Below, piece after piece: positions 1,603-38,517 of a stretch of DNA of 64,000 nt. Each line of letters starts with the position of its first letter. Within the stretch, counting starts at the first letter, position 1. The position numbers and the translations under genes are program-made. The notes under the pieces are model-generated. The model was not told where the DNA came from. It saw nothing but the letters and a program-made list of their open reading frames with translations, and made no database searches. Origin of the DNA: Rhodospirillaceae bacterium. GTDB lineage: Bacteria > Pseudomonadota > Alphaproteobacteria > Rhodospirillales > UBA2165. The stretch spans positions 84,075 to 148,074 of the forward strand of contig JABHAA010000026.1 of NCBI GenBank assembly GCA_018674495.1, given 5' to 3'.

Positions 1603-1606
1603 GATA

Positions 1607-2425: not shown

Positions 2426-2427
2426 AT

Positions 2428-4221: not shown

Positions 4222-4230
4222 TATGATCTG

Positions 4231-5438: not shown

Positions 5439-5445
5439 ACGCCGC

Positions 5446-6288: not shown

Positions 6289-6315
6289 AATGTTCGGTCC
6301 TGAAAGCGTTAAGTT

Positions 6316-12681: not shown

Positions 12682-13668
12682 TTAATTTTCGAGATCCAAA
12701 TTTTGATTGGCGCCGGTTACGCCTTTTTTCTCATGAACAAAAAATTTGCGCATATATTTTTTAAAGCCGAAATCGTGGTCGCTTAAATGAATGTTCTGCC
12801 CCTTCTCCCAGGCAACATAGGCCGATTTCAACCAGCGTTGATCTTCGACCATGGCCAGATGGCGGATCACGCTTTTGAAGGCGACGGTGGCTATCAATCT
12901 GATAATCGGGTTGGGATGGTAGCTGTTGATGGTGATGGTATATTGGGAAACTTGGTGGCTGATCGGGCGGACGAAAATCTGCCACTGCGCCTTGGCGACC
13001 ACATCGTGATATTCGCTGCAAAAGGGGTGGACGGTAACCTCGACCTGGTTTTCGTTGATCCGGTATTTGAAATGCTTTTCATCCTCGCTGAGGATTTCCG
13101 GCGTATAACTCGTTTTCAACGGGTTCTTGCGGCCAAAAAATTTCCGGTAGAGTCCATAGAAATCATAAAAATAGGTGTGATAGGCATGATGGGGAAAGTC
13201 CATGGAACTGTTCATGGCCAGATAGAACGGCACCTCATAGGGAACCGAATTGATCAGACAGCGCTCGGGAATTTCATCGAGAATGAAAGATTTGGCCCGC
13301 TCAAATCCATCCGCCGATCCCGGGTAAACGAATACCATATTGCCGCGCGAATAGGTCTGATAGGACTGCAGGGCGCAATCTGGCTTGTTGCGGGCGAGCG
13401 GCGCATCAAGCAGCGCGCCGTCTTTTAAATCGAACGTCCAGCCATGGAAACCGCAACTAACCTTGCCGCCGGTTATTTTGCCTTGATCCAGCGGCAATCC
13501 GTAATGGGGGCAGAAATTTTGATAGCATTTCGGATCACCATCGTTCCAAAAAAGGATGAGATCCCGGCCCCAAAGGGTAAAGGCGTACAACGATTGACGT
13601 TTCAATGCGGAACGGGTGATAATTCCGTATAAAAATTTGGCATAATCGTCTTTGCTGAAATTAAACAT
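12682..13668 (-). CDS. Rieske [2Fe-2S] domain non-haem oxygenase-like protein
   Basis: 328 aa with Rieske ligands CPHYG...(17 aa)...CGFHGW (CxH...CxxH) in the N-terminal domain and a catalytic-type C-terminal domain of unknown specificity. Confidence 0.75.
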   Translation of the reverse strand: MFNFSKDDYAKFLYGIITRSALKRQSLYAFTLWGRDLILFWNDGDPKCYQNFCPHYGLPLDQGKITGGKVSCGFHGWTFDLKDGALLDAPLARNKPDCALQSYQTYSRGNMVFVYPGSADGFERAKSFILDEIPERCLINSVPYEVPFYLAMNSSMDFPHHAYHTYFYDFYGLYRKFFGRKNPLKTSYTPEILSEDEKHFKYRINENQVEVTVHPFCSEYHDVVAKAQWQIFVRPISHQVSQYTITINSYHPNPIIRLIATVAFKSVIRHLAMVEDQRWLKSAYVAWEKGQNIHLSDHDFGFKKYMRKFFVHEKKGVTGANQNLDLEN

Positions 13669-13701
13669 CGCGGGTTTCTTTTATTAGATGCTAGGCCGCA
13701 T

Positions 13702-14724
13702 TTAATTGTTGAGGAGCGCGTTTGATCGCACCATATCCGATACCAGTTTGCCTGTCTTGTGCGCCACCGCAATATATCCTGTATATAATGGCGCCGTAAC
13801 GCTGACATGGTCGAGCTTGGCCCGGTACAGGAGCGCAAGCGCGCGCTCGAACCCAATGAGCCCAAGGATACGCGCGACAGGCATCGACTGCCTGTCGGTT
13901 TTCAATTCATCGATCGTCATTCCGTTGGTCGCACAATATTGGCGCACAAGGTCTGCAGTGTATATTGTTCCCGCAGACAAACGGTATACATAAAAACGCG
14001 AAGCAAGAAGGCGCGATAGCCAACGGGTATAATCCGCAAAATTAAAATAAAACATACCGCCCGGCTTGAGATTCCTCGCGATATTGGCGAACACCAACGA
14101 TGGATTTACAAAGTTGGACAATGTTGCAAAACACGTAATCGCATCGAATTGCCTATTGTCTCCCCACTGTCCTTCAAAATCTGCCACGGTTACATTAGCG
14201 CCAAAGGATTTACGCCCGTAATCGACCATGGTCGACGAGATGTCGATCCCCTCGGCTTTGAAACCATGGGCATTCAGAACATCCACAAACACCCCGTCAG
14301 AACAGCCGATATCCATTATTCTGGCTCCTTCGGGGAGCTCTTTTGATAGTCTTTTGGCGCGAACGGCGGCATTGATGCGGCGCAAAGGCTCTTCCTGAAT
14401 ATAGGAATCATAATTGACGAAGTCCTTATCCGCTTCGTCGCCGTCCGTTACATTGCTGAATTCCCAATATTCCTGCGACTCATAGACATGCGCGCGGGCT
14501 TCCTTGCTGAGCGAAGGGTTTTGAAATATTAAACCACAGTCATCGCAGCGGGAAAACTGGATCAGAAACCCCGCCATGCGGAAGGAATGGATTTCTTTAA
14601 GGTTTGAGCTGGAGCAAAAATCGCAACTGCGGTCGATAAAATCGAATTTGCCTGGGTCCAAAGAAACAAACGCGCGGCGCCCGCCGGCCGGGTCACCGCC
14701 AACATCACCAATATCACTACACAT
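13702..14724 (-). CDS. Class I SAM-dependent methyltransferase with N-terminal Cys4 zinc-ribbon-like segment
   Basis: 340 aa. CDFC...(24 aa)...CDDC, then SAM motif I IMDIGCSDG and an acidic residue after beta-2 (EGIDIS). Confidence 0.75.
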   Translation of the reverse strand: MCSDIGDVGGDPAGGRRAFVSLDPGKFDFIDRSCDFCSSSNLKEIHSFRMAGFLIQFSRCDDCGLIFQNPSLSKEARAHVYESQEYWEFSNVTDGDEADKDFVNYDSYIQEEPLRRINAAVRAKRLSKELPEGARIMDIGCSDGVFVDVLNAHGFKAEGIDISSTMVDYGRKSFGANVTVADFEGQWGDNRQFDAITCFATLSNFVNPSLVFANIARNLKPGGMFYFNFADYTRWLSRLLASRFYVYRLSAGTIYTADLVRQYCATNGMTIDELKTDRQSMPVARILGLIGFERALALLYRAKLDHVSVTAPLYTGYIAVAHKTGKLVSDMVRSNALLNN

Positions 14725-14726
14725 AA

Positions 14727-16454
14727 TTACTCGGCGGCCACGGAATTGCTGATTTCATGCTCTTCTTGGGGGCTGGCGGCCATAGATGCGAACCCATCAA
14801 CCACTTTTTCGCCAAGCAGGCCATCGGCGGGCAGCCTGAATTGCTTTTCAACCAATGGGAATTTTTTGTGCCTTTTGAACAGGCTAAGGTGATATTTCGG
14901 ATCCAGCCGCTTCTTAAGCCACCAAATATAATTTTTTACATAGGTGGTCGCATCCGTATCGCGGGTCGCAATGGCAATGTCCAGAAGACTTATGAATAAA
15001 CGAAACGGCCCCATCCAGAAGATATTATAGGCCTTCCATTTCAGGAGAAGACGCTTGGAATTAGGCGAAAGAAAGCTCATCAGCCGCAGCATAACCCGGT
15101 AACCGTTCAAAAGCCGGAGACGGTCTTTGTCCAAGCCGACGGAGCCGCCGCTCATGTAGTTGTCATGAAAACCGTTGTCGATGCGGTCTACTTCATCAAT
15201 GTGAATTTCGCCTGCAGCCAAGCCGTGCTCGATCATTTCCGTTCCGGGCATATATTGCAGCATAAACGGCGCGATCCGGTAGCAATGCTTGAGCGGCACC
15301 AGAAACTCCGCAAACTCCATCAGTTCCACCTTGATGGAAGCCAGGGATTCTTCCGGCGTCGGCGGGCGGGTTGATCCGTCGGCCTCGCGAACGGGTAGCC
15401 TTGGAATCCCGAGGATATAATCAAACGCATAATCTTGGCCGACACTTTCAAGAATATCCGCTGCCGCGCGTATCTCATCATTGGTGTCGGGCCGGTTGAG
15501 AATGGTATTACGAATTTCCTCGTTCCAACATTCCACGCCGATCTGAATGGCAAAGCATCCTGCATCATGCATGGCACGAACCGCCCGCTCGCTCACCAGT
15601 TTCGGGTGCAGGAAGCAGCGGAATGGAACGCCGACTTCGCTCTTATATTTTGTGAAAAATTCTTCCATCCATTTCGCACTGCATGCCATGACGGGCTGGC
15701 GAAAATCAACCCAGGCTGAATTGTATTTTTCAACATGGACTTTCAGCTCGGCGATTAGAGAATCGACGGATCGTTCGCGCACGCGCGGACCCTTCAATTG
15801 GCGCGCATCCTCGGCCAGAAATGACAGAGAGCAGAAATTACAGGCGTAGGGGCAGCCACGGGACGGGCACGACAAATAGGAATTTTTCAACGGAACGTGC
15901 GGCGCAAACAATTCCTTATCGACCGGCGGCAATACATCCAAATCAGCAATCAACGGTCGGCGCGGTGTCTTGATAATCTCGTCATTTTCAAGCCGATACC
16001 AAATATTGGGTATGGTGTAGTCGATTTTCCCCGCTTCAATGCTATCGGCCAATTCGACGATGGCAAAGTCGCCTTCGCCCAGGCACACCATATCGACCGC
16101 GCCATCATCTTCGTTCAGAACCGCATCCGGCGCGGAATGGGGATGAATACCGCCAAAAATTACCGGCACGCTATAGTGCTTCTTCAGCTCCGCCGCTATA
16201 AGACGCATTTCGCGGTATTGAACCGTCTGCACATGGAAGCCGACCAGATCAGGTTTCAATTCGATAATATATTGGATCAGCTTCTTGCGCTGATCCAGAA
16301 GCTTCGCCGCCCAATCGATTTTGATGTAATTCTTGTCGTCGAACAAAGCCTGATCATAGGCCAGCTCAACTTCGTGCCCGCTCTCTTTGAGCTTCGCCGA
16401 TAAAGCCTGTAGGGCGATATTTTCCCAACCGATTGCGACCAGAACGCACTTCAT
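14727..16454 (-). CDS. B12-binding-domain radical SAM enzyme (class B), paralogue 1
   Basis: 575 aa. N-terminal Rossmann-like domain with VIFGGIHPHSAPD, then SRGCPYACNFCS (CxxxCxxC). Confidence 0.85.
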   Translation of the reverse strand: MKCVLVAIGWENIALQALSAKLKESGHEVELAYDQALFDDKNYIKIDWAAKLLDQRKKLIQYIIELKPDLVGFHVQTVQYREMRLIAAELKKHYSVPVIFGGIHPHSAPDAVLNEDDGAVDMVCLGEGDFAIVELADSIEAGKIDYTIPNIWYRLENDEIIKTPRRPLIADLDVLPPVDKELFAPHVPLKNSYLSCPSRGCPYACNFCSLSFLAEDARQLKGPRVRERSVDSLIAELKVHVEKYNSAWVDFRQPVMACSAKWMEEFFTKYKSEVGVPFRCFLHPKLVSERAVRAMHDAGCFAIQIGVECWNEEIRNTILNRPDTNDEIRAAADILESVGQDYAFDYILGIPRLPVREADGSTRPPTPEESLASIKVELMEFAEFLVPLKHCYRIAPFMLQYMPGTEMIEHGLAAGEIHIDEVDRIDNGFHDNYMSGGSVGLDKDRLRLLNGYRVMLRLMSFLSPNSKRLLLKWKAYNIFWMGPFRLFISLLDIAIATRDTDATTYVKNYIWWLKKRLDPKYHLSLFKRHKKFPLVEKQFRLPADGLLGEKVVDGFASMAASPQEEHEISNSVAAE

Positions 16455-19966: not shown

Positions 19967-21685
19967 TCAGCTTTGGGCACCACCAACGGTGTGTTCCGGA
20001 CTTTGTCCGGCGTCAAATTTCTGTCCAGCTTTCAACGAGATCGCGCCTGTTTGGGTATATTCTTCGCGCGCGGATTTGAGCATTTTGGTTTTCTCGCGGG
20101 TCGCCGCTTTATCCCAATCGGATGATTTGTGTTCATCGGGTTTATAGGCCTTAATCCTGGGCCGCTTCTTCAACTCCGGATTCAACCAGTTCATGACCGG
20201 CTCGGTCAGCCGGAATGGCAGAGCGGCCCATAAAACATTTATCAACACCTGGCTGCCGACGATTGCCATCTCCACTATCTCAGCGGGGTTTAAATACCAC
20301 CGCTTGGGAAGCGCAACCCAACCCATGGAGCGGGTATGGTTCAACAGGCTCATAACCGTGCGAAAAGAAAGATAGGCCCTGAGGTTATAATAAATTATGT
20401 CGCGCTTAAGTTCCCATTCGGATGCTGTTTCCGGCACATAGGGCAGCGGCGTCTTATCAAATACGCTGCGTGTCAGCGCCAGCGTACTGTTGAAATTTGA
20501 CCAATCCTTTTGAATATTCAAGCGCCCGGAATTGACCAGATCTGTATAGAGCGGCGTTCCTGGATAGGGAATCAAATTGTTGAATTTGGTTGACTTGATT
20601 TTGAGGTCCTCGATGATCTTGAACCCGTCTTTTCGGTCCTGGCTGGTTTCGGTCGGCAGGCCGTAGATCATACCCAGGGACACACCCAACCCATGGCGGC
20701 GGCAAAGCGCCACCGCTTCGATATGGATATCAATGGTTTCATCTTTCAAGGTCAAATCCATGAGCCGCTGAACGCCGGTCTCCATGCCGAGAGACGCATG
20801 CGTAAATCCGGCCTCCGACATGCGCTTCACAACCTCGTCGCCGCCTTGCAAGACCAGGTTATCGGCGCGCGTCTGCACCGCAAGTTCCACTTTTGTATGC
20901 AAGCCTCGCTCAATAATTTTATCGCACAAGTCTATAACCCGGCGCGCCTTGATGCAGAAGTTGTCGTCGTAAAATATGATCTCTCTCTGACCATAGCGTT
21001 CCACGAGGGTTTCCAACTCGTCAACAATGGCGTCGTTGGACTTAAACCTGTAGGTCGTGCCGGTCATCATGCGCTGGCTGCAAAATGAGCATCGATATGG
21101 GCATCCACGCGATGTGGTGAGGAACCCCATATCGTATTTCGGATTTTCGAACAGGTGATACGGAAATGCAGGAATTTGATCTAAGTCCGGAAACAAGGGC
21201 GCGTCGGGATTATGACAATTGATCCCATCTTTTCGGAAAGACACGCCGCGAATATCATGACTTTCATCGTCGCCATGGAGAGCACGGTATAGCTGGAGCA
21301 TTATCTCTTCGCCCTCGCCGCGAACCACATAGTCTATGACACCTTGATCCAGCGGCTCATCGGGCAACGCGGTCGGGTGAATGCCGCCGACAGTGATAAT
21401 GGTATCGGGAATTTCGGCTTTGATCATTTGAGCTATCTGGTAGGCGCGCGCCACATGGGCGGTCAAGCAGCCGATGCCGATAACATGGGGCTTGGGCATG
21501 CCGGCCAAGGCTTCGCGGACCCTGTCGGCGGTGATTGTTTCGACTTCCTCATCCAGAACACGGCAGCGGATATCGTGCTTTTCCATATAGGCACAGATAA
21601 AACCAATACCGACCGGAATACCGACCGGAACATAGCGTGACACGAAGCCACCGAATTTTTCTGCGGCAGGATTTATAAATAACAT
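19967..21685 (-). CDS. B12-binding-domain radical SAM enzyme (class B), paralogue 2
   Basis: 572 aa with TVGGIHPTALPDEPL, then TSRGCPYRCSFCS. It is the closest paralogue of 44225-45850. Confidence 0.85.
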   Translation of the reverse strand: MLFINPAAEKFGGFVSRYVPVGIPVGIGFICAYMEKHDIRCRVLDEEVETITADRVREALAGMPKPHVIGIGCLTAHVARAYQIAQMIKAEIPDTIITVGGIHPTALPDEPLDQGVIDYVVRGEGEEIMLQLYRALHGDDESHDIRGVSFRKDGINCHNPDAPLFPDLDQIPAFPYHLFENPKYDMGFLTTSRGCPYRCSFCSQRMMTGTTYRFKSNDAIVDELETLVERYGQREIIFYDDNFCIKARRVIDLCDKIIERGLHTKVELAVQTRADNLVLQGGDEVVKRMSEAGFTHASLGMETGVQRLMDLTLKDETIDIHIEAVALCRRHGLGVSLGMIYGLPTETSQDRKDGFKIIEDLKIKSTKFNNLIPYPGTPLYTDLVNSGRLNIQKDWSNFNSTLALTRSVFDKTPLPYVPETASEWELKRDIIYYNLRAYLSFRTVMSLLNHTRSMGWVALPKRWYLNPAEIVEMAIVGSQVLINVLWAALPFRLTEPVMNWLNPELKKRPRIKAYKPDEHKSSDWDKAATREKTKMLKSAREEYTQTGAISLKAGQKFDAGQSPEHTVGGAQS

Positions 21686-21931: not shown

Positions 21932-23668
21932 CTAAACGGAATTTCTTTCCGGGGTTAACTGAATGACCCGGGACGATTGATGATCACGCCTTAGCACCGG
22001 AATGGCGTTGGCAAGGTGGATGTCGTCCGTCTTATCGGAAGTCTGGCTAGTGACACCCAGATCCTGCTTTTGCGCCCGAATGGTCCGGTAAAGCGCATCC
22101 CAATTTTTAAATAAAGCGGCCTCATCGCGCTTCGAAATCCAGCGGGCACTGAAACGAACGCCAAGCGATGCCAGGCCGGTTTTGGCGGCAATCCGAAACG
22201 CCGTCTGCAATTTGGACTTATGCGCCTTTTTTGAGAGCCCGGTGACCGCCCTGCCGATGGAGCCAGTCCGGCCGGACAGCTTTGCATCCCGGCTTGTCCG
22301 GTAAAATGCGAAAAATATCCGGAACTTCCAATAGATCAGTTCCAGCTTGGAAAAGCGCGAATTGTGCGAAACCGCCGGGGTCAACTGGCTGCCATGCAAG
22401 ATGTGGGCAAAATATTGCCGGTCAAAATTGATCTGTCCGGCATCATAAAGGCTGTTGAAAATTTCTGTGCCCGGCAGAGCGGTATAAAAATTCACAACAA
22501 CATCGGTGACGCCAAGTGTCTTCATCAATTTAACAAAGGGAATATTTTCCCCCATCTCGCGCCGGGTTTCGTGGGGGAATCCGATAACAATGAAGATGGC
22601 CACGTTTAAATCGGTCTTGATTGCCGATTTCACGCTGCTCACCAGATTTTCAGTTTTCATCTTTTTCTTGATCAGCTTGCGCGTTCGCTCAGAACCTGAT
22701 TCCGGGGCGTAGCTCATACTGACCATACCGGTGCGCCGCATCAATTCGGCTACGTCGTCATCGACCGCTTCGCAGCGGGTTCCAGATGGAAATTGCCAGG
22801 TGATATCCAACCCCCGATCAAGAATTTCATTACAAAATGTCACCACCCAAGGCTTTTGAATGATCGCCGTCAGGTCTTGAAACGGGAAATTTCGGGCGCC
22901 GAAAGTATCGATGTAATATTCGATTTCATCGACGACCATGACCGGATCTCTGGGGATCCATCTGGGCAGCCACATATTCGGCGACGAGCAGTAGGTGCAT
23001 TGATAGGGGCAGCCGCGCGTCGCCAGGATGGGTATGGTTGTTGCAGCCACATCCATGCCGCCGACCATCCGGTGATGATTATAAGTGGCGACATCAAACC
23101 GTTTCCACGCTGGCGGGGCAATATCGTCCACCGCTGAGATTCGGGGCCGGCGGCTATTGACCACCACATCATCGCCATTCCGGTAGGCAATTCCTTGAAT
23201 TTCGGCGATCGGGGCGCGCCCCTCAAAGGCATCGACAAGTTCAATGATCGTTTCCTCGCCTTCGCCCATAGCAACCACATCTGCGCCCGAAGACGCCAGG
23301 CAGAATTCCGGCATCGACGTGCAGTGCTCGCCGCCAACAATGATGTGCATGTCGGGGCGCAAATTTCGGATGAGTTTTATCAATTGAACCACGGCGGGCC
23401 ATTCGTGGGTAAATATGACGGAAATTCCAACAATCGTGCATTCCGGCGCTATGCGCCCGGCAATATCTTCAAGCCGGCTGCCAATCAAAAACCCCTTATA
23501 ATACCGTGTCTTCCCCGTTGGCGCTTCGGCAACCGCATCGATCACATCAAAGGCAATATCGCGTTTTTGCAGCGCACCCGCGATATAGGCCAATCCAAGC
23601 GGCAACGTGACGGACGTTGTCGCAACGCGAAATGATTCGACAGCGGGAGGTCGGATGAGACAGATCAT
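21932..23668 (-). CDS. B12-binding-domain radical SAM enzyme (class B), paralogue 3
   Basis: 578 aa with IIVGGEHCTSMPE, then ATRGCPYQCTYCS. Confidence 0.85.
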   Translation of the reverse strand: MICLIRPPAVESFRVATTSVTLPLGLAYIAGALQKRDIAFDVIDAVAEAPTGKTRYYKGFLIGSRLEDIAGRIAPECTIVGISVIFTHEWPAVVQLIKLIRNLRPDMHIIVGGEHCTSMPEFCLASSGADVVAMGEGEETIIELVDAFEGRAPIAEIQGIAYRNGDDVVVNSRRPRISAVDDIAPPAWKRFDVATYNHHRMVGGMDVAATTIPILATRGCPYQCTYCSSPNMWLPRWIPRDPVMVVDEIEYYIDTFGARNFPFQDLTAIIQKPWVVTFCNEILDRGLDITWQFPSGTRCEAVDDDVAELMRRTGMVSMSYAPESGSERTRKLIKKKMKTENLVSSVKSAIKTDLNVAIFIVIGFPHETRREMGENIPFVKLMKTLGVTDVVVNFYTALPGTEIFNSLYDAGQINFDRQYFAHILHGSQLTPAVSHNSRFSKLELIYWKFRIFFAFYRTSRDAKLSGRTGSIGRAVTGLSKKAHKSKLQTAFRIAAKTGLASLGVRFSARWISKRDEAALFKNWDALYRTIRAQKQDLGVTSQTSDKTDDIHLANAIPVLRRDHQSSRVIQLTPERNSV

Positions 23669-23936: not shown

Positions 23937-24467
23937 TTGAGTGGCGCTAAGTTCGGCGGTACCAACTTTGCCCAGGCGCATCTTGATAACGTCACCGTGG
24001 ATTTGAAGGCGCTGCTCGATCACCGTCGGCGCGGCCAAAGCAAGGCCTTTCTCAGTCAGCTCACGCGTCTACCGCAAAGGGATTTTCGAAACTGGAACTT
24101 TCAAGACTACGACCTCAGCAAAATTGACATTACCGGCAGTAATCTGGCGGGCGTCAATTTGCGCCGCGCCGATCTCCGGGGCGTCAATGCCGGCCTAGCC
24201 GATTTTCGCGGCGCCCGGCTTGAGCAGATATTTTTTGACATGGTCAAAGCCAACGGCGCTGATTTCAGATCGAGTCGCCTCAACAAAGTATTTTTCAGGC
24301 GATCTCAACTCAAGGACGTTGATTTCCGGTTTGCGGTGCATACCGGTGTGGCGTTTGGCGGCAGCACTATTGAAAACCCACGCATTGAAGTAGCCCGCGT
24401 CCTCGGCGCCAAACTGAACAATACAAAGCTGATTGGTACCACGCTCAAATCGCTGCAGTCGCCGTGA
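23937..24467 (+). CDS. Pentapeptide-repeat protein
   Basis: 176 aa with consecutive A(D/N)LxX-type pentapeptides (GSNLAGVNLRRADLRGVNAGLADFRGARLE...). TTG start; the open frame begins at 23910. It is the only plus-strand gene between 11.7 and 38.8 kb. Confidence 0.75.
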   Translation: MSGAKFGGTNFAQAHLDNVTVDLKALLDHRRRGQSKAFLSQLTRLPQRDFRNWNFQDYDLSKIDITGSNLAGVNLRRADLRGVNAGLADFRGARLEQIFFDMVKANGADFRSSRLNKVFFRRSQLKDVDFRFAVHTGVAFGGSTIENPRIEVARVLGAKLNNTKLIGTTLKSLQSP

Positions 24468-24525: not shown

Positions 24526-25401
24526 TCACCAACCCGAATACAGCTCCGATATTTTTGTGTCCCGTTCGGCATAAATGATCAGAAAGCCTTCGAAATCCAG
24601 CCGCTTCCACAATGGTTGCATCAGCCGCAACAAACCCCGGCGGGGATATTGCAGATAGATTTTCCGGTGGATGGTTTTGAAGCCGGCAAAGCGGACCAGA
24701 TATTCCCAGTCTTCCGGGTTCAATTCGAATATATGGAAATTTTCGGGCGTCAGGTCCTTATAGATTTCGGCATCAAAATTGCGCAGCTGGTAGCCGCCGA
24801 ACCGGCTGCGCTTGACGTAGGGAACCGAAAACAAAATTCGGTCGCCCTGACCCTCGGTCGCAAGGGCGCGAAAAAAGCCGATGGGGTCAATAAGATGTTC
24901 GACCATTTCGAAACTGGTATAGAGATCCGCATCGATGCCGTGTTCGTGAATTTTTTCGGCGCGCCCGAGCACCGCCCGCCCACCCTTGGCTTTGATTTTA
25001 TCGATGGCGCCGGGGTCAAGGTTTACCGAGACGATGTCCTTGATTTTGCCCTTGGGCGCCAGCGCTTTCAGCACTTCGGCATGGGTTCCGGCCGAATCGC
25101 CAATATCCACAATGGTCAAGCCGTCGCCGGAAAAATGGTCCAGCGCTTCCAAAACGCTTTTGATCTGAAACGCGTGCAATCCCCGTAATTTGTATTTCCA
25201 GTAGCGCTCATACTCGGTGCGGTCAAACTCGTTGGTGTATTGATCGATCAGGTCGGGAACGATTTTCTCCATATCCGCAAACAGCGAATAGCGCCCGGTT
25301 TCCTTGGCTGCCGAAATGACCGACGCAGCCGAAAGCCGCTGATACAAATCCGTCGTATCGAGCCCAAACCCGCGCAATATTGATTTGATCAGCCTAAGCA
25401 T
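24526..25401 (-). CDS. Class I SAM-dependent methyltransferase
   Basis: Motif I is LTIVDIGDSAG. I chose the internal ATG at 25401, which overlaps the upstream stop by 8 nt, over the listed start at 25479. Confidence 0.6.
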   Translation of the reverse strand: MLRLIKSILRGFGLDTTDLYQRLSAASVISAAKETGRYSLFADMEKIVPDLIDQYTNEFDRTEYERYWKYKLRGLHAFQIKSVLEALDHFSGDGLTIVDIGDSAGTHAEVLKALAPKGKIKDIVSVNLDPGAIDKIKAKGGRAVLGRAEKIHEHGIDADLYTSFEMVEHLIDPIGFFRALATEGQGDRILFSVPYVKRSRFGGYQLRNFDAEIYKDLTPENFHIFELNPEDWEYLVRFAGFKTIHRKIYLQYPRRGLLRLMQPLWKRLDFEGFLIIYAERDTKISELYSGW

Positions 25402-26455
25402 CCGGCGGCCCCGGTTCGGCCACGCCGTTATCCAAATTCCACCGCGCTTTCCATTCGGGATCGGCGCAATAGATGTCATAGACCAGCTTCATGGTATTGA
25501 ACGCGTCCCTAGACGAGCCATTGGTGATAGCGTGATCGCCGGCAATGGCGCCCGCAAACTCGGCAATTTCCGCGGCCCAGGATGTGTCATTTTTGTAGCG
25601 GGTGATGTGCTCTTCGGGATCGCCGTCGAAGACGCCGTTCGTGCGCGCCACGGTCATGGTTTCCTCGCCATAGCTTTTCGATCCCGAAAGGATACCGTTG
25701 AGGGTGATCGAGCCTTTTTCCAGTGTAATGTCGAACTGGAATCGGTGCCGCCATTCGGTCGCCGAGGAATGCAGCATGGCAACCACGCCCGTATCAGAGC
25801 GCATCAGCGCATAGGCATTATCCTCCACATCGTGGTTCCAATAGCTGTTGGAGACAACGCTGGAAATCTCCGGATACTCGCCGCCAAACAGGCGCATGAG
25901 ATCGACCATGTGAATGCCTTGATCAAGCAGAATACCGCCGCCAGCAATCTCGCGCTTGGTGCGCCAGTCGGATTGAAAATTGATCATCACCGATTTACCA
26001 TAGACGCCGCGAATATTGATCACCCGGCCCAATTCGCCGGACGCGACGATGTCGAGGGCGCCCGCAACCGAATCATGGTAGCGGTGATTGAAGCCGTATT
26101 TGAGCTTAAGCCCGGTGGTATTCTCTTCACAGGCAATGACGCGCTGAATGTCATCGAGATTGCGACCAGGCGGTTTTTCGCAAAGAGTGTGGAACCCGTG
26201 TTGCAGCGAGGCGATGGTAACCTCGGCAGCGACATCGTTGGTCAGGCAAATAAAGGCGACATCCAGATCTTCGGTGAACAATCGGGAATAGTGGGGATAA
26301 TAATTGATGCCGTCTTCCAATTGGCCTTCATCAGAATATTTCCGGTCGCAGACCGCCACCACCCGCATATCGTCGCGGCTATCGATATATTGCCGGCGGC
26401 GCTGACCGACGACGCCGTAACCGGCGATACCGACGCGTAAACGCTCGGCCGTCAT
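25394..26455 (-). CDS. Gfo/Idh/MocA-family oxidoreductase
   Basis: 353 aa with Rossmann RVGIAGYGVVG and EKP motif LCEKPPG. Overlaps the upstream gene by 4 nt. Confidence 0.8.
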   Translation of the reverse strand: MTAERLRVGIAGYGVVGQRRRQYIDSRDDMRVVAVCDRKYSDEGQLEDGINYYPHYSRLFTEDLDVAFICLTNDVAAEVTIASLQHGFHTLCEKPPGRNLDDIQRVIACEENTTGLKLKYGFNHRYHDSVAGALDIVASGELGRVINIRGVYGKSVMINFQSDWRTKREIAGGGILLDQGIHMVDLMRLFGGEYPEISSVVSNSYWNHDVEDNAYALMRSDTGVVAMLHSSATEWRHRFQFDITLEKGSITLNGILSGSKSYGEETMTVARTNGVFDGDPEEHITRYKNDTSWAAEIAEFAGAIAGDHAITNGSSRDAFNTMKLVYDIYCADPEWKARWNLDNGVAEPGPPDA

Positions 26456-27225
26456 TCGCCAATATCCATATAGTGGCGGGTCCAGGGATCGGCCTTCAGC
26501 ATTTCTTCGGCACGGTCCCTGTCGGCCGGCGTATCAACGCCTAGGGTTGGCCGGTCTGCGATAACGACGCTCACCTCAAATCCGTTTTCGAGGCCGCGCA
26601 GGATATCGATCTGCTCGGCCTGCTCCAAAGGGGTCGGCGGCATCTTGGAAAACTGATCGATGAACGAGCGGGTAAAGCAGATGATCCCGGTCTGCTGGTA
26701 GGCGGGCGCGGGGTCATCCCGAAAACAGGCGGGGATCGGCGCCCTCGAAAAATACAACGCCTTGCCGGTAGGCGCCGCGACCACCTTGACCCGGTTGGGA
26801 TCGGTGAGGTCGGCCTCATTGGCCAGCGGCGAGATCACGTTGACGATTTCGGAGCCGCCTTTGGCGAACTTATCGGCGACCGCATCGCCCATATCGGGCC
26901 CAAACAGAATTTCATCGCCCTGCACCATCAGCACCGGTGCATCCGGCGCCAGATCGGGCTGGAAATTTTGAATGGCCTGCTGAGTGCGGTGCATTGCGCT
27001 GGGCTGCGCTTCATCGGTCATGACGACGGTAGCGCCGAAACCCTCAGCGGCGTCCTTGATCGACCCATCGCACGTGGCAATCACCACCGGGCCCAGCTTT
27101 TTGGCCAGCCGGCAGCGCTCATATATATGTTGCACCATCGCCAGGCCAAGCATCGGAACCAACGGCTTACCGGGAAAGCGGCTGGAATTCATGCGCACCG
27201 GAATGACGCAAATGGGCGCCGTCAT
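26452..27225 (-). CDS. KdsB-like (CMP-ulosonate synthetase family) cytidylyltransferase
   Basis: 257 aa. N-terminal VIPVRMNSSRFPGKPLVPMLGLAMVQHIYER matches the IPAR..S.R.PGKPL...G.pMi signature of 3-deoxy-manno-octulosonate cytidylyltransferases. Confidence 0.75.
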   Translation of the reverse strand: MTAPICVIPVRMNSSRFPGKPLVPMLGLAMVQHIYERCRLAKKLGPVVIATCDGSIKDAAEGFGATVVMTDEAQPSAMHRTQQAIQNFQPDLAPDAPVLMVQGDEILFGPDMGDAVADKFAKGGSEIVNVISPLANEADLTDPNRVKVVAAPTGKALYFSRAPIPACFRDDPAPAYQQTGIICFTRSFIDQFSKMPPTPLEQAEQIDILRGLENGFEVSVVIADRPTLGVDTPADRDRAEEMLKADPWTRHYMDIGE

Positions 27226-28016
27226 TTCTGCAGGTCCCCAAACCCTTTGAGGGCATCGCGCATCGCCGTCAAATCGGTGCCGTAGGCAACGAAGCGAAAG
27301 CCTGACTTTATTTTGGCACGCAGCTCATCCAGATCCGTGCCCACCTGATGAATGCCTGGCGCTTTGCCGAACCGGCGGCAGGCATCCAAAACTGTGTCCA
27401 GCTTTTCCTGAAATTCAGGCCCAGAAAAATCACCGTGGGCGCCCATGCTGGCGGACAAATCGTAGGGCCCGATGAACACCGCGTCGGTCAGATCGGAGCC
27501 GATGATTGCCTCGGCCTCGGCGACGCCGCGCATGGTTTCAATCTGCGGCACCAGGAACGGACGGAACCCGGGCACAAGTTCATCGAACCGGTCGCCCCAT
27601 TGGTTGGCCCTGGATAGTCCGACGCCGCGGGTGCCGGCCGGCGGATAATGGCAGTGGCGGGCGAATTCGGCGAAATCATCGGCGCTTTCGACAACCGGTA
27701 TGATCAGCCCCTCTGCGCCGGCGTCCAAAAGCCGGCGGGCCAAGTACGGATCGGCGCTGGGAAGACGCACGAACGGGGTGGCTCCATGACGCTCGGCGGC
27801 GGCAAAAATAGAGATGGCGCTCTCGATATCAGCGGCGCCGTGCTCCATATCCACGGCCAGCCAATCGAAGCCGAGGGACGCCATCGCCTCGGCGGCCAGC
27901 GCCGAGGCGGAGGTAAGCCAGCAGCCGATGGAAGCCTCACCGGCGGCCAATTTATTTCGGATTTCGCTGATCATGTCATACATCTCATTCGGCAAAAATG
28001 GCCGCCCAAACCCCAT
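27222..28016 (-). CDS. HpcH/HpaI-family (class II, pyruvate-dependent) aldolase
   Basis: 264 aa with GCWLTSASALAAEAMASLGFDWLAVDMEHG, FVRLP and PQIET, typical of the 2-keto-3-deoxy-acid aldolase TIM barrel. Confidence 0.75.
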   Translation of the reverse strand: MGFGRPFLPNEMYDMISEIRNKLAAGEASIGCWLTSASALAAEAMASLGFDWLAVDMEHGAADIESAISIFAAAERHGATPFVRLPSADPYLARRLLDAGAEGLIIPVVESADDFAEFARHCHYPPAGTRGVGLSRANQWGDRFDELVPGFRPFLVPQIETMRGVAEAEAIIGSDLTDAVFIGPYDLSASMGAHGDFSGPEFQEKLDTVLDACRRFGKAPGIHQVGTDLDELRAKIKSGFRFVAYGTDLTAMRDALKGFGDLQK

Positions 28017-29574
28017 AATTCACATCGGCAAAAACCTGCTCGCGGGGAACCGGGCTGGGGCGCGGTAGATCTGAAAATGCGCCGGAAATATCGTCGCGCC
28101 CGGCGAAAGGCACGCTAACGTTTTCGGGCAATATGTCAATTGCGACCACTTGTTCGGCAACGAAGCGCAAGGTCGGTATGCCGGCAAAATAGGCTTCCAG
28201 CCCGACCGCCGAGGCGGCATAAAGAACGCCTGAGACCGCGCCCTGTTCCGGCAGCGGCGCATCGGTTCTTTCAAAACCCGGCGTATCTTCGAATGTCATC
28301 GGTAGCATCGGATGCGGCTTGACCAGAAAGCGAATGCCATCTTTGGCGGCAGCGCGAATGGCGCTCATCATTTCGGCGCCCACCGCGCCGGCGAAGGGCA
28401 GCGCCGCGAACACCGGCGCGGATGTATCAAAGCTGCATTTGGCAGGTCCAGAAAATCGGAATGCGCCGGCGATCTGCAAACGCTCTTCGGGCATCGACCA
28501 TTTCGCCAATTGGGCATAATAGGGCGCACCGATGCACAACACCCGGTCCGGAATGCTGGCCAGATAATCCACATTGGAAAGCGGCGCATAGTTGAGCATG
28601 TGCCGTCCGACCATAGAATGCTGATAGCCGACGGTGCCGATGCCAAGGGCATGGGCGCGGCGCACAAAGCTTCGCTCCCAGGAATGGTTTTCCCACGGCC
28701 AGGCGACAAGGACGGGGGCCATATCGGTCAGCCACCGTTGCTGGCAATGGTTCTGCCAGCGTATCATGGCGGCGGTGCCGGTGCCGCCTTCCCGCGCCGC
28801 CGCCCGCGCCACCAGCCAGCCATATGGGCCCTGCAAATGGCGCCTGGCGGGCCGCCAGCGGGCAAACGGCAGCGAGAATGCGTAGCGCCAATTGCCCCAG
28901 CCATTGAGGCTGACAGTGCCCGGATGCCGGGTCAGTTTTGCCAGTAACGGATCGATGCAATCCACATGCAGGATGCGCCGAAGGCCCGGATAAATTTGCA
29001 ACAGATCACCGAAATAGGCGTCCTTGCCCTCGGCGTCGCTGTAGGGATGTCCATAGGCCAGCAACCATTGCCCGCCCTTTGCGCCGGGCGTTGGGCGGTG
29101 CCCGTAAGTCCAAATGCGCCGCAGCACGGTGATCACGGTCTTGGCGCGCGCCGCATAGCCGCGGACAAACAGACGTAGTGCGGCGGGCCACAACCTTGGC
29201 GGCCGCCCGGCATCGACGCCGGGCCAGTTCTTTAAATGGCGATACAGCCAAGGGTCATCGCAAATCACCAGGGTCTTAGCGTCTTCGCCCGCCCATTCGT
29301 TGATCAGCTTTGTCCAGGCCAGCATGGTGCCGAAGTCCGACGCGTTGGTGACGCAGGCCGGCGTATGGGCGAGGGCAGAGGATGGATCGCCGGAAAGAGC
29401 TTTGCCGATGGCAAACCATTGCTCGGCACATTGATCGAAGGCGGCCTCCAGCTTGAGACCAACCCCAGGCCGCCGCCGCTCTCTCGGCAATGAGGCTGGA
29501 TCACCCGAAAGCACAACCCAACTGTCATAGCCGGCAGTGGTGGCTTGATCAGATCTACGCAAAATTACCGGCAA
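27985..29574 (-). CDS. Conserved-looking protein of unknown function (possible GT-B-like transferase for the CMP-activated sugar)
   Basis: 529-aa ORF in the operon frame, overlapping the aldolase gene by 32 nt. I recognise no motif. The transferase idea comes only from its position next to a cytidylyltransferase. Confidence 0.4.
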   Translation of the reverse strand: MPVILRRSDQATTAGYDSWVVLSGDPASLPRERRRPGVGLKLEAAFDQCAEQWFAIGKALSGDPSSALAHTPACVTNASDFGTMLAWTKLINEWAGEDAKTLVICDDPWLYRHLKNWPGVDAGRPPRLWPAALRLFVRGYAARAKTVITVLRRIWTYGHRPTPGAKGGQWLLAYGHPYSDAEGKDAYFGDLLQIYPGLRRILHVDCIDPLLAKLTRHPGTVSLNGWGNWRYAFSLPFARWRPARRHLQGPYGWLVARAAAREGGTGTAAMIRWQNHCQQRWLTDMAPVLVAWPWENHSWERSFVRRAHALGIGTVGYQHSMVGRHMLNYAPLSNVDYLASIPDRVLCIGAPYYAQLAKWSMPEERLQIAGAFRFSGPAKCSFDTSAPVFAALPFAGAVGAEMMSAIRAAAKDGIRFLVKPHPMLPMTFEDTPGFERTDAPLPEQGAVSGVLYAASAVGLEAYFAGIPTLRFVAEQVVAIDILPENVSVPFAGRDDISGAFSDLPRPSPVPREQVFADVNYGVWAAIFAE

Positions 29575-29604
29575 GGAATCCTGCGCGGCTGGATTTTCCG
29601 GGCC

Positions 29605-31203
29605 TCAATCATACGTCGCTGATTTGCCACGGGTGATGTCGTCCACAGTCAGCATCCGGTTTTCAAGCAGCTTGGCGTCGTCTTCCCAGTTTTGCTCTTC
29701 ATCGCCGCCGGCGTGGAAATAAGAGTTGGCATAACGTGCGCGCAGCTCGTCATAAATCCGATTGCCTTCTTCGTCGTCCTTTTCGGCGCGTTCGATCAAC
29801 GGCCAGTCTTTTTCCGGAAAGCGCACATAAAGGGCGAAGGTTTTGCGCAAGCCCAGCACCTCTTCACGGGACAACTGCGGCTGGTCCAGGGCGAAATCCG
29901 ACAGGAACGATCCCGGCGTATGGTCCGGCTCGATAAAGCCTTCCTTAACGCAGACGGTTTGTAGATCGGTGCCATGGAACGGCGCGAACGGAGAGGCGTT
30001 GACGCTGTCGAAGGTCAGGTTGCGGTTCAGGTGAACGGTGTCGAATATCAATTCGCGGGTCTCACCGGGAAAGCCGATGATATTGTTGACCGTGAGCGGT
30101 ATCTCCGCCTGCTCGACAATTTCCGACGCCTTGATCATGTCGATATTGTCGAAGCGTTTGTGAATGACGCGGGAGCGGAAATCTTCGTTGCCGTGCTCCA
30201 AACCCATGGACATGCGGTGGCATCCCAGTTCGGCCAATCGCTCGATCCGCTCTTCGGTGACAGTTTCGGCGCGGGTTTGAATCCAGAACGGCAATTTGTA
30301 GCGGGCATAAACCTCGCAAAATTCGTCGAACTCTTGGTCGTTAAACAGAATGAATGTGTCGGAGGCGAAATACACATACTCCGCATCGTGGACGCGCACC
30401 AACTCTTCCAATTCCCGGCCGATGGCGGCGGCGGATTTCTTGCGGAAGAACCCCGAAGTGCCGTTGTCCCGATACATCTTCAACGTATAGGGCGAATTGC
30501 AGAAGGTGCATTTATAGGGACAGCCGCGATTGGTCTCAACGGGCACGGCACGATAAATCTTGCCGCCCATGGGACGCAACAAACGCTCGGGCTCGAACAG
30601 GCTGTAATCGGGGACCGGCTGGGCGCTGATATCTTCCAAGGGACGCATGGGGTTTTGCACCAACTGGCCACCATCGAGATAGGCCAGATTGGCGATGGAA
30701 CGGACGTCTCCCCCGGCCGCCAAGGCCTGGCAGATATCAACTAGCAATCCTTCGCCTTCGCCCATGCACACATAATCGATATGCTTGTTTTGCAAGATGA
30801 GTCTTGGTGCCGAGTAGGCGAGAACGCCGCCGGCCAGAACCGGCGCCGGATAATCGCCGATGGCATCGAGCAGCTTCAACGCCGGCGCGTAGGTGATTTC
30901 CAAAATGGAGGCGACAATCAGATCGGGCTTGAAGTCATCGATGATCTTGACGAAGTCGTCGACCATGTCGGTGGTCTTCAATTTGGAGCGCCGCACCGCA
31001 TCATCGACCGGGGTGGATTGCATGAAGCGCTCTTTGGCATCGTCCGATGTGATCGATGTCGCTTCGGTGTAAAAGGTGGTGTCGAACAACGCCAGCTCGA
31101 CGCCTTCACGCTTCAAAAGCGCCGTGAACAGGCCGACCGATATGGGCGGCGGGTTCATCAGTGTGCCGTTAGGATAGATGAATAGGACTTTGAATTTATT
31201 CAT
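29605..31203 (-). CDS. B12-binding-domain radical SAM enzyme (class B), paralogue 4
   Basis: 532 aa. N-terminal FKVLFIYPNG... Rossmann-like domain, then TNRGCPYKCTFCNS. Confidence 0.85.
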   Translation of the reverse strand: MNKFKVLFIYPNGTLMNPPPISVGLFTALLKREGVELALFDTTFYTEATSITSDDAKERFMQSTPVDDAVRRSKLKTTDMVDDFVKIIDDFKPDLIVASILEITYAPALKLLDAIGDYPAPVLAGGVLAYSAPRLILQNKHIDYVCMGEGEGLLVDICQALAAGGDVRSIANLAYLDGGQLVQNPMRPLEDISAQPVPDYSLFEPERLLRPMGGKIYRAVPVETNRGCPYKCTFCNSPYTLKMYRDNGTSGFFRKKSAAAIGRELEELVRVHDAEYVYFASDTFILFNDQEFDEFCEVYARYKLPFWIQTRAETVTEERIERLAELGCHRMSMGLEHGNEDFRSRVIHKRFDNIDMIKASEIVEQAEIPLTVNNIIGFPGETRELIFDTVHLNRNLTFDSVNASPFAPFHGTDLQTVCVKEGFIEPDHTPGSFLSDFALDQPQLSREEVLGLRKTFALYVRFPEKDWPLIERAEKDDEEGNRIYDELRARYANSYFHAGGDEEQNWEDDAKLLENRMLTVDDITRGKSATYD

Positions 31204-31305: not shown

Positions 31306-31336
31306 ACCATATCTTGTTCATAGAATGAACGTCAAG
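31306..31336 (-). promoter_or_regulatory. Sigma70-like promoter with palindromic operator upstream of the rSAM-4 operon
   Basis: On the minus strand: -35 TTGACG (31335-31330), 18-nt spacer, -10 TATGGT (31311-31306). A perfect palindrome GTTCATagaATGAAC (31316-31330) abuts the -35, the same layout as at 6955-6974 and 34537-34556. Confidence 0.5.
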
Positions 31337-37041: not shown

Positions 37042-38517
37042 TTAGCTGGATTGCATCTCTTCGAAGAAAGATTGCTTGTCGTTCAAAATCTGGCGCAGCG
37101 AGTTACTGCCGGAATGCTCATTGATGCGGGCTTCGAACTCCCGGGCGAGAGATTTGAGATCCTCGGCGCTAAATTCCTTGGTGGCGATCAGCGGCTCGCC
37201 ATAATACTGGGTTGCGGTCAGATAATCTTCGTCGGAGATATTTTCGTCGATCATGTTGTGCTCGACCGCCACGTCGTATAGCTCGGTTCCGTAGAGCGGC
37301 GTTGCGAACAGCATGATCGGCACCACTTTGTAGTCCTTGAACAGGCGCACCGCCAACTCCACCGTTTCGCGCATGTCTGACATGGTTTCGCCAGGGAAGC
37401 CCATTATATAAAAGGCACACATATTGATCTTTAATTCGGCGCAATAACCAACAATCTCGATAACTTTTTCAAGGATGGTGTCTTTTTTGACAATCGTGTC
37501 GAGTACCTTCTGGTTGCCCGATTCGATGGCCAGTTGAACCCCGGCGCAACCGGACTTTTTGATTTTCTCGACGATGCGGTAATTCAAGCTGTCGGCGCGG
37601 ATGCCGTTCGGCGTGTCCCACTGGATGTCCATTTTCGCATCGATGATACCGTCCAGGATCGCCTCGAAGCGGAGCGGCTTGAAGGAAATATTATCATCTT
37701 CGAGATGGAAATTGGTAATCCCCATTTCCTCGACACAATATTTGAAATGACGCAGGACATATTCTGGCGAATGAAAGCGAAACTTCTTGCCCATATGCAG
37801 TTTGATCGAGCAAAAGACGCAATTGAACGGGCAGCCGCGGCTGGTGATGATCGAAACTGATTTGGTCGGGATCGCGGAGCGACTTTTATAGAGGTTCGGA
37901 TTGTTAAGATAGTCATCCAGGTTCAACAGGTCGTACGCGGGCAGCGGCAACTCATCCAGATCATCCAATGGGCGGCGTTTGGTATATTCGACCTTGCCGT
38001 TGGTTTTGTGGGCGACGCCTTCGATATTTTCCAACGATTCGCCGGCGCCAAAACGCTCGATAAATTCGCGGAAGGTCACCTCGCCCTCGCCGACAACGCA
38101 GAAATCGCAATCGCCGTCGTCGAGCAATTTGGCGTAACGGACGCTGGGGTGCGGGCCGCCCAGCACAACGGTTATTTCGGGATCGATATCGCGGCAAAGG
38201 GCGGAGATACGCAGCCCGTTTTCCGACTGGCTGGAAAAGGGAATGGAAATTCCGACGATGTCGGGCGCGTAGTCTTCGATCGCGACCCGGACTTTTTCGA
38301 TGGGTGTGCCGTAAGTGACAAACCCGCCCACCTCCACGGCTTCAAAATCCTCGATCAAGCAGTCAAAGATTTTAACGTCGCAAATATCCTTGGTGGTCGC
38401 GGCAACGTACAAAAGGCTGAGCGGGAAGTAGACGTTAAATCCAAGGGCCTGACCCTTATATTTATGGGGCGGATTTATCAGCAGTACGCGCGGCTGTTTC
38501 TTGGACAAAGTATTCAC
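37042..38517 (-). CDS. B12-binding-domain radical SAM enzyme (class B), paralogue 5
   Basis: 491 aa with VVLGGPHPSVR, then TSRGCPFNCVFCS. Flanked by 434-bp and 360-bp non-coding spacers. Confidence 0.85.
   Translation of the reverse strand: MNTLSKKQPRVLLINPPHKYKGQALGFNVYFPLSLLYVAATTKDICDVKIFDCLIEDFEAVEVGGFVTYGTPIEKVRVAIEDYAPDIVGISIPFSSQSENGLRISALCRDIDPEITVVLGGPHPSVRYAKLLDDGDCDFCVVGEGEVTFREFIERFGAGESLENIEGVAHKTNGKVEYTKRRPLDDLDELPLPAYDLLNLDDYLNNPNLYKSRSAIPTKSVSIITSRGCPFNCVFCSIKLHMGKKFRFHSPEYVLRHFKYCVEEMGITNFHLEDDNISFKPLRFEAILDGIIDAKMDIQWDTPNGIRADSLNYRIVEKIKKSGCAGVQLAIESGNQKVLDTIVKKDTILEKVIEIVGYCAELKINMCAFYIMGFPGETMSDMRETVELAVRLFKDYKVVPIMLFATPLYGTELYDVAVEHNMIDENISDEDYLTATQYYGEPLIATKEFSAEDLKSLAREFEARINEHSGSNSLRQILNDKQSFFEEMQSS

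Follow-up and report, generated by a model that had tools for sequence, protein, structure and literature searches.

Within a 64,000-nucleotide stretch of a Rhodospirillaceae genome (hereafter the window; contig JABHAA010000026.1, positions 84,075 to 148,074), six co-directional minus-strand genes at 24526-31203 encode, in operon order, a B12-binding radical SAM enzyme, a 529-aa protein, a class II pyruvate aldolase of the HpcH/HpaI family, a KdsB-family cytidylyltransferase (CT), a Gfo/Idh/MocA oxidoreductase (GFO353) and a methyltransferase-like protein. The last five of these genes recur as a module in more than 80 genomes, nearly all from Rhodospirillales. The operon arrangement is far beyond chance; the same gene order is found in dozens of other genomes. 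This cassette is widespread but uncharacterised and, judged from its protein families and their context, probably specifies a pathway to a cytidine monophosphate (CMP)-activated ulosonic acid that departs from known ones in its condensing enzyme and brings with it a new candidate for the transferase. As an earlier note on this DNA had pointed out, textbook routes to CMP-activated 3-deoxy-D-manno-octulosonic acid (Kdo) and to sialic, pseudaminic and legionaminic acids employ phosphoenolpyruvate (PEP)-dependent synthases; Pfam and NCBIfam scans detected no such synthase (KdsA/DAHP_synth_1 or NeuB) among the six genes of the operon.

In the protein database the aldolase matches 2271 relatives, and the 120 best of them are 54-78% identical to it. 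On the contigs of six among these best 120, a Pfam-less gene of ~500-535 aa lies directly upstream of the aldolase gene (6/6), a Gfo/Idh/MocA gene lies downstream (6/6) and a CTP_transf_3 gene follows the aldolase directly in five of the six. A scan with a profile of the 529-aa protein, taking one genome per species, yielded 80 loci, nearly all of them from Rhodospirillales (Magnetospirillum, Paramagnetospirillum, Phaeospirillum, Magnetovibrio, Thalassospiraceae and Terasakiella). We compared the window proteins with these loci by BLAST, using for the counts of CT and aldolase the 59 loci that extend at least 5 kb downstream of the 529-aa gene, and found a KdsB-like CT within 10 kb of this gene in 51 of them. 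GFO353 is the best-conserved partner of the 529-aa protein. The methyltransferase-like protein, which carries an IVDIGDSAG motif, is a recurrent accessory member, with homologues of 47-51% identity at no fewer than 13 related loci from both cassette variants described below. The radical SAM gene, which had been put forward as the head of the module, is not conserved in this role: homologues at 28-35% identity are found in a few related loci only (L037, L070, L072 and L105), and the window enzyme stays far below the cut-offs of all NCBIfam equivalogs. It is probably a tailoring enzyme.

The association of aldolase and CT, on which the earlier note had built its proposal, is conserved and usually one of direct neighbours, both in the close clade and at aldolase identities of 33-43%. 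This emerged from a metagenome scan queried with an alignment of the aldolase, in which the aldolase gene was flanked on each side by 2 kb or more in 36 loci. Eleven of these loci encode an aldolase at least 47% identical to that of the window: a KdsB-like CT is present in 10 and adjacent in 10, a relative of the 529-aa protein is present in eight and a 2-hydroxyacid dehydrogenase in six. Among the other 25 loci, with aldolases 33-43% identical, the corresponding numbers are 13 with a KdsB-like CT, six with the CT adjacent, none with a relative of the 529-aa protein and 17 with a 2-hydroxyacid dehydrogenase, an enzyme that may supply hydroxypyruvate or another 2-keto acid in these distant cassettes. 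The fully annotated example among them (L124, 1886-11836) starts with genes for Wzx, a 6-phosphogluconolactonase-like protein, a 2-hydroxyacid dehydrogenase, a short-chain dehydrogenase/reductase (SDR), an FkbM methyltransferase, a HAD protein and the HpcH aldolase, and continues with a hexapeptide acyltransferase, a methyltransferase, another SDR, a CTP_transf_3 protein and a Pfam-less protein of 627 aa. The latter matches the 529-aa family weakly (hhalign E = 0.36) and collinearly, with correspondence of the W..E, xHS, KPHP and SS motifs. Four further loci (L130, L131, L156 and L158) resemble L124 in that a 2-hydroxyacid dehydrogenase precedes HAD and aldolase genes, followed by a CTP_transf_3 gene and a large Pfam-less protein. 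The link between aldolase and CT and that between 529-aa protein and CT therefore each persist without the third partner, which fits an order in which the aldolase would act before the CT and the 529-aa protein after it.

The aldolase matches PF03328 at profile positions 2-220 of 221 with 121.8 bits (gathering score 25) and aligns over its full length with the structures of HpaI, GarL and YfaU (E = 1e-36 to 1e-42), to which it is ~36-40% identical. His45 and Arg70 are catalytic in the HpaI family, and Glu149 and Asp175 are metal ligands. All four residues (HpaI numbering, from an alignment with HpaI 4b5s) are invariant in 121/121 clade members. By its residues the enzyme is thus catalytically intact, and it is not an equivalog of HpaI, GarL or RhmA: it belongs to a separate clade, whose members match it with E-values no higher than 1e-82, and scores below the cut-offs of TIGR02311, TIGR03239/NF007849 and NF007521 (165.3 vs 368.8; 153.7 vs 406.75; 156.2 vs 393; 125 vs 441). 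Class II HpcH/HpaI aldolases are reversible and accept many aldehydes, and we propose that this one is the backbone-forming enzyme of the module.

The CT aligns with solved KdsB structures at a best E-value of 2.6e-33 (119 bits) and is of the KdsB rather than the NeuA/PseF type, the PseF model giving 22.8 bits against a cut-off of 205.7. Still, it is not a standard KdsB, in line with what had been suspected, since it remains below the kdsB equivalogs TIGR00466 (139 vs 155.2) and NF003948 (166.6 vs 281) and has lost two of the residues at the Kdo site. The catalytic Lys19, the Q-G-D-E motif (Q98, D100) and the Asp of the V-D-T motif (D235) are invariant in 29 sequences of the window subtype (CT-A) and in 28 sequences of a second subtype (CT-B) from sister cassettes; the counterparts in Aquifex KdsB (AA-LCKS) are K19, D95 and D219 (PMC3149649). 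Y185 and Q98 of E. coli KdsB bind the C5-OH of Kdo, and H181 is an active-site residue (PMC12199768). CT-A keeps Q98, whereas H181 is replaced by Q in 29/29 sequences and Y185 by I (21) or M (8), and CT-B has V or I at position 181 and F at position 185. These replacements in the pocket indicate that CT-A and CT-B are KdsB-derived enzymes with remodelled sugar pockets that also differ from each other. Among solved structures, GFO353 is closest to 1,5-anhydro-D-fructose reductase, inositol dehydrogenases, levoglucosan dehydrogenase and DgpA, relatives whose reactions take place at the ring carbons of pyranoses or cyclitols.

The 529-aa protein had been classed as unknown, and it has indeed no Pfam family at E-values up to 10 and no sequence match in the PDB, but it turns out to be a GT-B-fold enzyme and the most constant member of the module. 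Its AlphaFold2 model (pLDDT 91) shows the GT-B fold of two Rossmann domains, which Foldseek relates to many GT-B enzymes with a probability of 1.00. UDP-GlcNAc 2-epimerases, among them the hydrolysing enzymes GNE and NeuC, head the matches (4zht, 5zlr, 5xvs; TM 0.55-0.60), and the C-terminal 244 residues alone match the NST sialyltransferase 2yk6 (TM 0.50, E = 3e-4), in a search that likewise does not separate transferases from epimerases and hydrolases. More than 120 homologues (43-53% identity) carry no functional name; nearly all are unnamed or annotated as "hypothetical protein", and one fragment is labelled as TIGR04326 family. No family model matches the 529-aa protein apart from TIGR04326 (O_ant_LIC13510, "surface carbohydrate biosynthesis protein"), which stands for an uncharacterised family and covers the C-terminal half only (residues 289-484). 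The protein does not belong to this family: it scores far under the cut-off (55 vs 250 bits), and the model leaves its N-terminal 285 residues uncovered. Neither the cassette nor TIGR04326 was found described in the literature under the topics of HpcH aldolases with cytidylyltransferases, capsule or glycosyltransferases, of CMP-ulosonic acid and of Magnetospirillum ulosonic acid.

GT-B glycosyltransferases that use CMP-sugars (sialyl- and Kdo-transferases of GT38, 52, 80, 99 and 107) have in their nucleotide-binding domain a His-Pro motif and a Ser/Thr pair ahead of a "GLEA" helix. An H421-P422 pair is invariant in 43/43 sequences of the 529-aa family; in UDP-GlcNAc 2-epimerases a comparable His occupies this position of the fold. 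No Epimerase_2 Pfam signal was obtained from any of these 43 members, two of which show weak Glyco_transf_4 matches, and the models of GT99, GT107 and GT30 give no match to the 529-aa protein. It is most likely a transferase for the CMP-activated acid sugar, with a NeuC-like sugar-nucleotide hydrolase as the alternative; the model and the motif fit both, and we favour the transferase because of the logic of the gene neighbourhood.

Comparison of the related loci separated two variants of the cassette. For this we preferred targeted BLAST to single-linkage clustering of the locus open reading frames (ORFs), which was noisy, long antisense ORFs in GC-rich DNA merging the clusters. Variant A, the type of the window, consists of the 529-aa gene, the aldolase, CT-A (45-53% identical to the window protein) and GFO353 (58-67%). 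Variant B has the 529-aa gene, a second Gfo/Idh/MocA gene (Gfo-2, ~25% identical), GFO353 (55-67%) and, further on, CT-B (31-39%). Cultured, non-pathogenic carriers are Magnetospirillum aberrantis (L001) for variant A, and Magnetospirillum moscoviense BB-1 and Paramagnetospirillum marisnigri SP-1 for variant B. All 23 loci with an aldolase carry CT-A (CT-B 0, no CT 0); where the aldolase is absent (36 loci), 27 carry CT-B, one carries CT-A and eight have no CT. Aldolase and Gfo-2 are mutually exclusive at the same position (23 vs 23 loci, zero overlap), and the aldolase is therefore replaceable. GFO353 is equally similar in both variants (55-67%), whereas CT identity drops from ~50% to ~35%, which indicates that the CT type tracks the switch between aldolase and Gfo-2 and not overall divergence.

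The best annotated sister cassette without aldolase (L067, 10001-20724; similar loci are L027, L036, L051 and L059) encodes, in order, the 529-aa homologue, Gfo-2, GFO353, an SxtJ-like protein, a carbamoyltransferase, a methyltransferase, an SGNH/AlgX-like protein, CT-B, a HAD protein and a dehydrogenase. At this single fully annotated variant B locus the genes for CT-B, the phosphoglycolate-phosphatase-like HAD protein and the phosphoglycerate-dehydrogenase-like 2-hydroxyacid dehydrogenase are spaced by 1-4 nt. A trio of SxtJ-like protein, 50-aa DUF5989 protein and O-carbamoyltransferase directly follows GFO353 there (13582-16203) and in three aldolase contexts, all in polysaccharide loci; this carbamoyltransferase with its small partner proteins resembles a set of the saxitoxin gene cluster. 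NeuB and NeuA-like genes lie no more than 10 kb from the cassette in 13/29 variant A loci and 2/30 variant B loci. Finally, an SDR gene and a gene for a sugar-phosphate cyclase resembling 3-dehydroquinate synthase (DHQS) follow GFO353 in 21/83 related loci of both variants (L001, 11558-13331; L085, 10590-12381), a pair that hints at cyclitol or deoxy-sugar chemistry in extended cassettes.

The ORF listing, together with the Pfam and NCBIfam scans, bears out the order, coordinates and families given previously for the six genes in the window (Table 1). That their junctions overlap throughout holds for aldolase/CT and CT/Gfo (4 nt each) and for Gfo/methyltransferase (8 nt, ATGCTTAG, given the likely methyltransferase start at 25401, which yields 291 aa), but not for the other two: radical SAM and 529-aa genes are separated by a 30-nt spacer carrying AGGA ahead of a TTG start, and the 529-aa and aldolase genes by 1 nt (TGA-g-ATG), given an aldolase start at 27983. 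This start is likely, as it yields the 253-aa form found in the protein database (P0004). The promoter-like site upstream of the operon has 9/12 consensus matches and is weak evidence alone, the scan having found 6 such sites against 3.5 expected.

Table 1. Genes of the operon and a promoter-like site, with their positions in the window.
Feature	Position	Strand	Remarks
Promoter-like site (TTGACG, 18 nt, TATGGT)	31306..31335	-	Upstream of radical SAM gene; possible operon start
B12-binding radical SAM enzyme, 532 aa	29605..31203	-	Pfam B12-binding and Radical_SAM; first gene of the operon
529-aa GT-B-fold protein	27985..29574	-	No Pfam match; distantly TIGR04326-like
HpcH/HpaI class II (metal-dependent) pyruvate aldolase	27222..28016	-	Pfam, 121.8 bits
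KdsB-family CTP:ulosonate cytidylyltransferase (CT), subtype CT-A	26452..27225	-	Pfam CTP_transf_3, 129 bits
Gfo/Idh/MocA sugar-ring dehydrogenase or ketoreductase (GFO353)	25394..26455	-	Pfam
Methyltransferase-like protein (weak class I)	24526..25479	-	Methyltransf_23/11 below gathering score; last gene of the operon

The module is minimal in the window, where targeted BLAST found no HAD, 2-hydroxyacid dehydrogenase or DHQS-like gene anywhere and no SDR gene in or beside the operon, leaving the aldolase as the only candidate backbone-forming enzyme here. We considered the phosphoglycerate-dehydrogenase-like 2-hydroxyacid dehydrogenase and its HAD phosphatase partner, which recur together at many of the related loci, as a source of the CT substrate or of hydroxypyruvate and rejected them for the window, since the pair is absent from it and equally common in both variants, and thus not essential here. 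A route through a DHQS-like cyclase was also considered; the window has no gene for it.

The surrounding island is a surface-glycan locus with GT2 enzymes, Wzy-like and O-antigen-ligase-like proteins, acyltransferases and a NusG/RfaH paralogue. It contains six B12-binding radical SAM genes (14727-16454, 19967-21685, 21932-23668, 29605-31203, 37042-38517 and 44225-45850), none of which comes near any NCBIfam equivalog cut-off, an unusual density of probable sugar C-methylases or other radical tailoring enzymes for one glycan island. A separate operon for a NeuB-type synthase and a NeuA-like cytidylyltransferase lies at the left end of the window, within a pathway that spans 41-6786; the operon (853-6288) also encodes SDRs, a carbamoyltransferase and a xylose-isomerase-like TIM-barrel protein, and represents the first CMP-acid sugar of the island. 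Its NeuB (5446-6288) is 18 kb away from the aldolase operon and has its own CT. A pentapeptide-repeat gene (176 aa, 23937-24467, plus strand) converges on the end of the aldolase operon and stands isolated between two minus-strand operons.

Taken together, these families, residues and gene contexts suggest a pathway in which the aldolase would make a 3-deoxy-2-ulosonic acid, CT-A would activate it, GFO353, the methyltransferase-like protein and the radical SAM enzyme would tailor it and the 529-aa protein would transfer it, a scheme to which we give about an even chance. The aldolase is predicted to add an aldose or hydroxy-aldehyde to pyruvate, or perhaps to hydroxypyruvate. A 4-hydroxy-2-keto (3-deoxy-2-ulosonic) acid would result, or the 3-hydroxy analogue if hydroxypyruvate is the donor, and this step would replace both the PEP-dependent synthase of the KdsA/NeuB type and its phosphatase. 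From its family, its catalytic residues and the changes in its pocket, the CT would convert this acid to the CMP derivative. GFO353 may oxidise or reduce a ring position, and the methyltransferase-like protein and the B12-radical SAM enzyme may add further changes. Fold, motif and neighbourhood suggest that the 529-aa protein would then move the sugar from CMP onto the surface glycan of this RfaH/ops-controlled island. A more far-reaching version, which we advance tentatively and hold possible though short of an even chance, is that the aldolase clade constitutes a third, PEP-independent class of ulosonic-acid synthases after KdsA and NeuB that makes an undescribed Kdo-like sugar, with a dedicated KdsB-derived CT, and that the 529-aa protein founds a new family of CMP-sugar glycosyltransferases.

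Several observations weigh against this pathway. What we observe are the genes, their families, the intact catalytic residues, the fold predicted for the 529-aa protein and the synteny, and every chemical step is deduced from these. The operon encodes no phosphatase and no source of free aldose. About half of the related loci have Gfo-2 in the place of the aldolase and still keep the CT and the 529-aa protein. These sister cassettes also retain a Gfo/Idh/MocA enzyme, so that the module as a whole can do without the aldolase; at one locus (L031, 9992-13469) the 529-aa gene is directly followed by CT-A and then GFO353, without aldolase. Conversely, one contig (P0102) has the 529-aa gene, the aldolase and GFO353 but no cytidylyltransferase within 8 kb on either side. 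The covariation of aldolase and CT-A (23/23 vs 1/36 loci) reflects mostly shared ancestry, because a tree built from the 529-aa protein shows only ~3 switches between aldolase and Gfo-2 and between CT-A and CT-B; the 2-3 independent contrasts are all concordant and not significant, and for this reason we rejected the covariation as statistical proof. The CT passes the cut-off of the NCBIfam KdsB subfamily NF003952 (221.6 vs 193) and could therefore still accept Kdo. As to the 529-aa protein, GT1 glycosyltransferases, SenB and the NST sialyltransferase come close behind the epimerases and hydrolases in the fold search, the latter ranking slightly above the transferases, and the match of the family profile to the beta-Kdo transferase WbbB in the PDB is not significant (E = 0.8), although it covers exactly the "RAHP" and "SSVGLEA" motifs.

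The pass on NF003952, together with the cassettes that keep CT, 529-aa protein and Gfo/Idh/MocA enzyme without an aldolase and the aldolase context without a nearby CT, would agree with a simpler arrangement, in which the CT activates ordinary Kdo from a housekeeping KdsA pathway for a glycan that contains Kdo, the 529-aa protein transfers it and the aldolase does not build the backbone but has an accessory role, either in providing or withdrawing a small keto-acid or aldehyde or in decorating the sugar. There is precedent for such an arrangement in E. coli KpsU, a capsule-specific duplicate of KdsB (PMC12199768). We nevertheless consider it unlikely, since both kdsB equivalogs are missed, no CT-A or CT-B sequence retains H181 or Y185, the two subtypes differ mutually at these pocket positions, the adjacency of aldolase and CT persists down to 33-43% aldolase identity and the operon offers no other candidate for a backbone-forming enzyme.

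The fold of the 529-aa protein admits a different division of labour, and one that we regard as rather unlikely: it could be a hydrolase/2-epimerase, analogous to NeuC, that frees a hexose, to which the aldolase would add pyruvate to give a nine-carbon, sialic-acid-like sugar for activation by the CT, the transferase being encoded elsewhere. NanA can run in reverse and join a hexose to pyruvate. Such a role would provide the source of free aldose; the best Foldseek matches with the highest TM-scores are UDP-GlcNAc 2-epimerases including GNE and NeuC, the 529-aa gene is almost always immediately upstream of the aldolase or Gfo-2 gene with a junction of at most 1 nt, and the change of Y185 to I or M could make room for an N-acyl group. 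Yet the E-values of glycosyltransferases are almost as good, Epimerase_2 is not detected in the 43 family members and the CT is of the KdsB and not the NeuA family. The gene contexts also disagree with it: variant B combines the 529-aa protein and the CT without an aldolase, distant aldolase-CT pairs occur without the 529-aa protein, and in the distant cassette described above an orphan of 627 aa with collinear xHS, KPHP and SS motifs lies directly after the CT.

The mutual exclusion of aldolase and Gfo-2 at one position (23 vs 23 loci), with GFO353 constant in both variants, could further be read as the sign of a shared keto-intermediate. GFO353 would oxidise a hydroxyl of a pre-existing sugar acid and the resulting carbonyl would be acted on by the aldolase in variant A, giving a pyruvate-derived branch or extension, or by Gfo-2 in variant B, giving reduction to an epimer; the change of CT subtype with the switch is as expected for differing end products. 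This reading, which we judge improbable, requires that the sugar acid come from outside, we know of no HpcH aldolase that acts on sugar-ring ketones in glycan biosynthesis, and distant aldolase-CT cassettes often lack a GFO353 homologue (6/25). An ordinary degradative aldolase of the HpaI/GarL/RhmA type that lies in a glycan island by chance, as the best named matches and automated database names (HpaI, GarL, RhmA) would have it, is hardly credible, being contradicted by synteny with the CT, Gfo and 529-aa genes, which is kept across dozens of genomes and includes stop codons that overlap the next start, by a shortfall of >200 bits at every HpaI/GarL/RhmA equivalog cut-off and by a neighbourhood in which scans found no aromatic or sugar-acid catabolic partner genes.

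If the proposed pathway from aldolase to 529-aa transferase is true, the use of a pyruvate aldolase to build CMP-activated keto-deoxy acid sugars of the cell surface would amount to a new biosynthetic logic. Many Rhodospirillales, cultured magnetotactic bacteria among them, would then be expected to have an unknown sugar in their envelopes, as would other lineages through the distant cassettes, and functions could be given to three large protein sets now labelled "hypothetical", "HpaI-like aldolase" and "KdsB". Class II aldolases and promiscuous cytidylyltransferases are useful for the chemo-enzymatic synthesis of sugar analogues.

Each part of the proposed pathway has a counterpart in known systems. 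The window aldolase shares its fold and the four catalytic residues with the catabolic HpaI, GarL and RhmA/YfaU (PDB 4b5s, 1dxe and 2vws) and with the hydroxypyruvate-accepting HpcH aldolases (PDB 6r62 family), but differs from the catabolic enzymes in its setting, which is consistently a glycan operon with a cytidylyltransferase gene alongside and without catabolic genes nearby. The CMP-Kdo pathway (KdsD, KdsA, KdsC and KdsB), with KpsF/KpsU and KpsC/KpsS of capsules and with WbbB, follows the same logic of making, activating and transferring an acid sugar as is proposed here, and would have in common with the cassette the CTP-dependent activation at C2 by an enzyme of the KdsB family and transfer by a GT-B enzyme with a His-Pro motif, if the motif of the 529-aa protein is equivalent; the operon differs from it in lacking KdsA, KdsC and KdsD and in having a class II pyruvate aldolase in the place of the synthase. 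The nonulosonic acid pathways (NeuC/NeuB/NeuA, PseB-I/PseF and Leg) also lead to a CMP-activated keto-deoxy acid sugar for surface glycans, and the order of GT-B-fold protein, condensing enzyme and cytidylyltransferase in the cassette mirrors that of NeuC-NeuB-NeuA, with a pyruvate aldolase as the condensing enzyme in contrast to the PEP-dependent NeuB.

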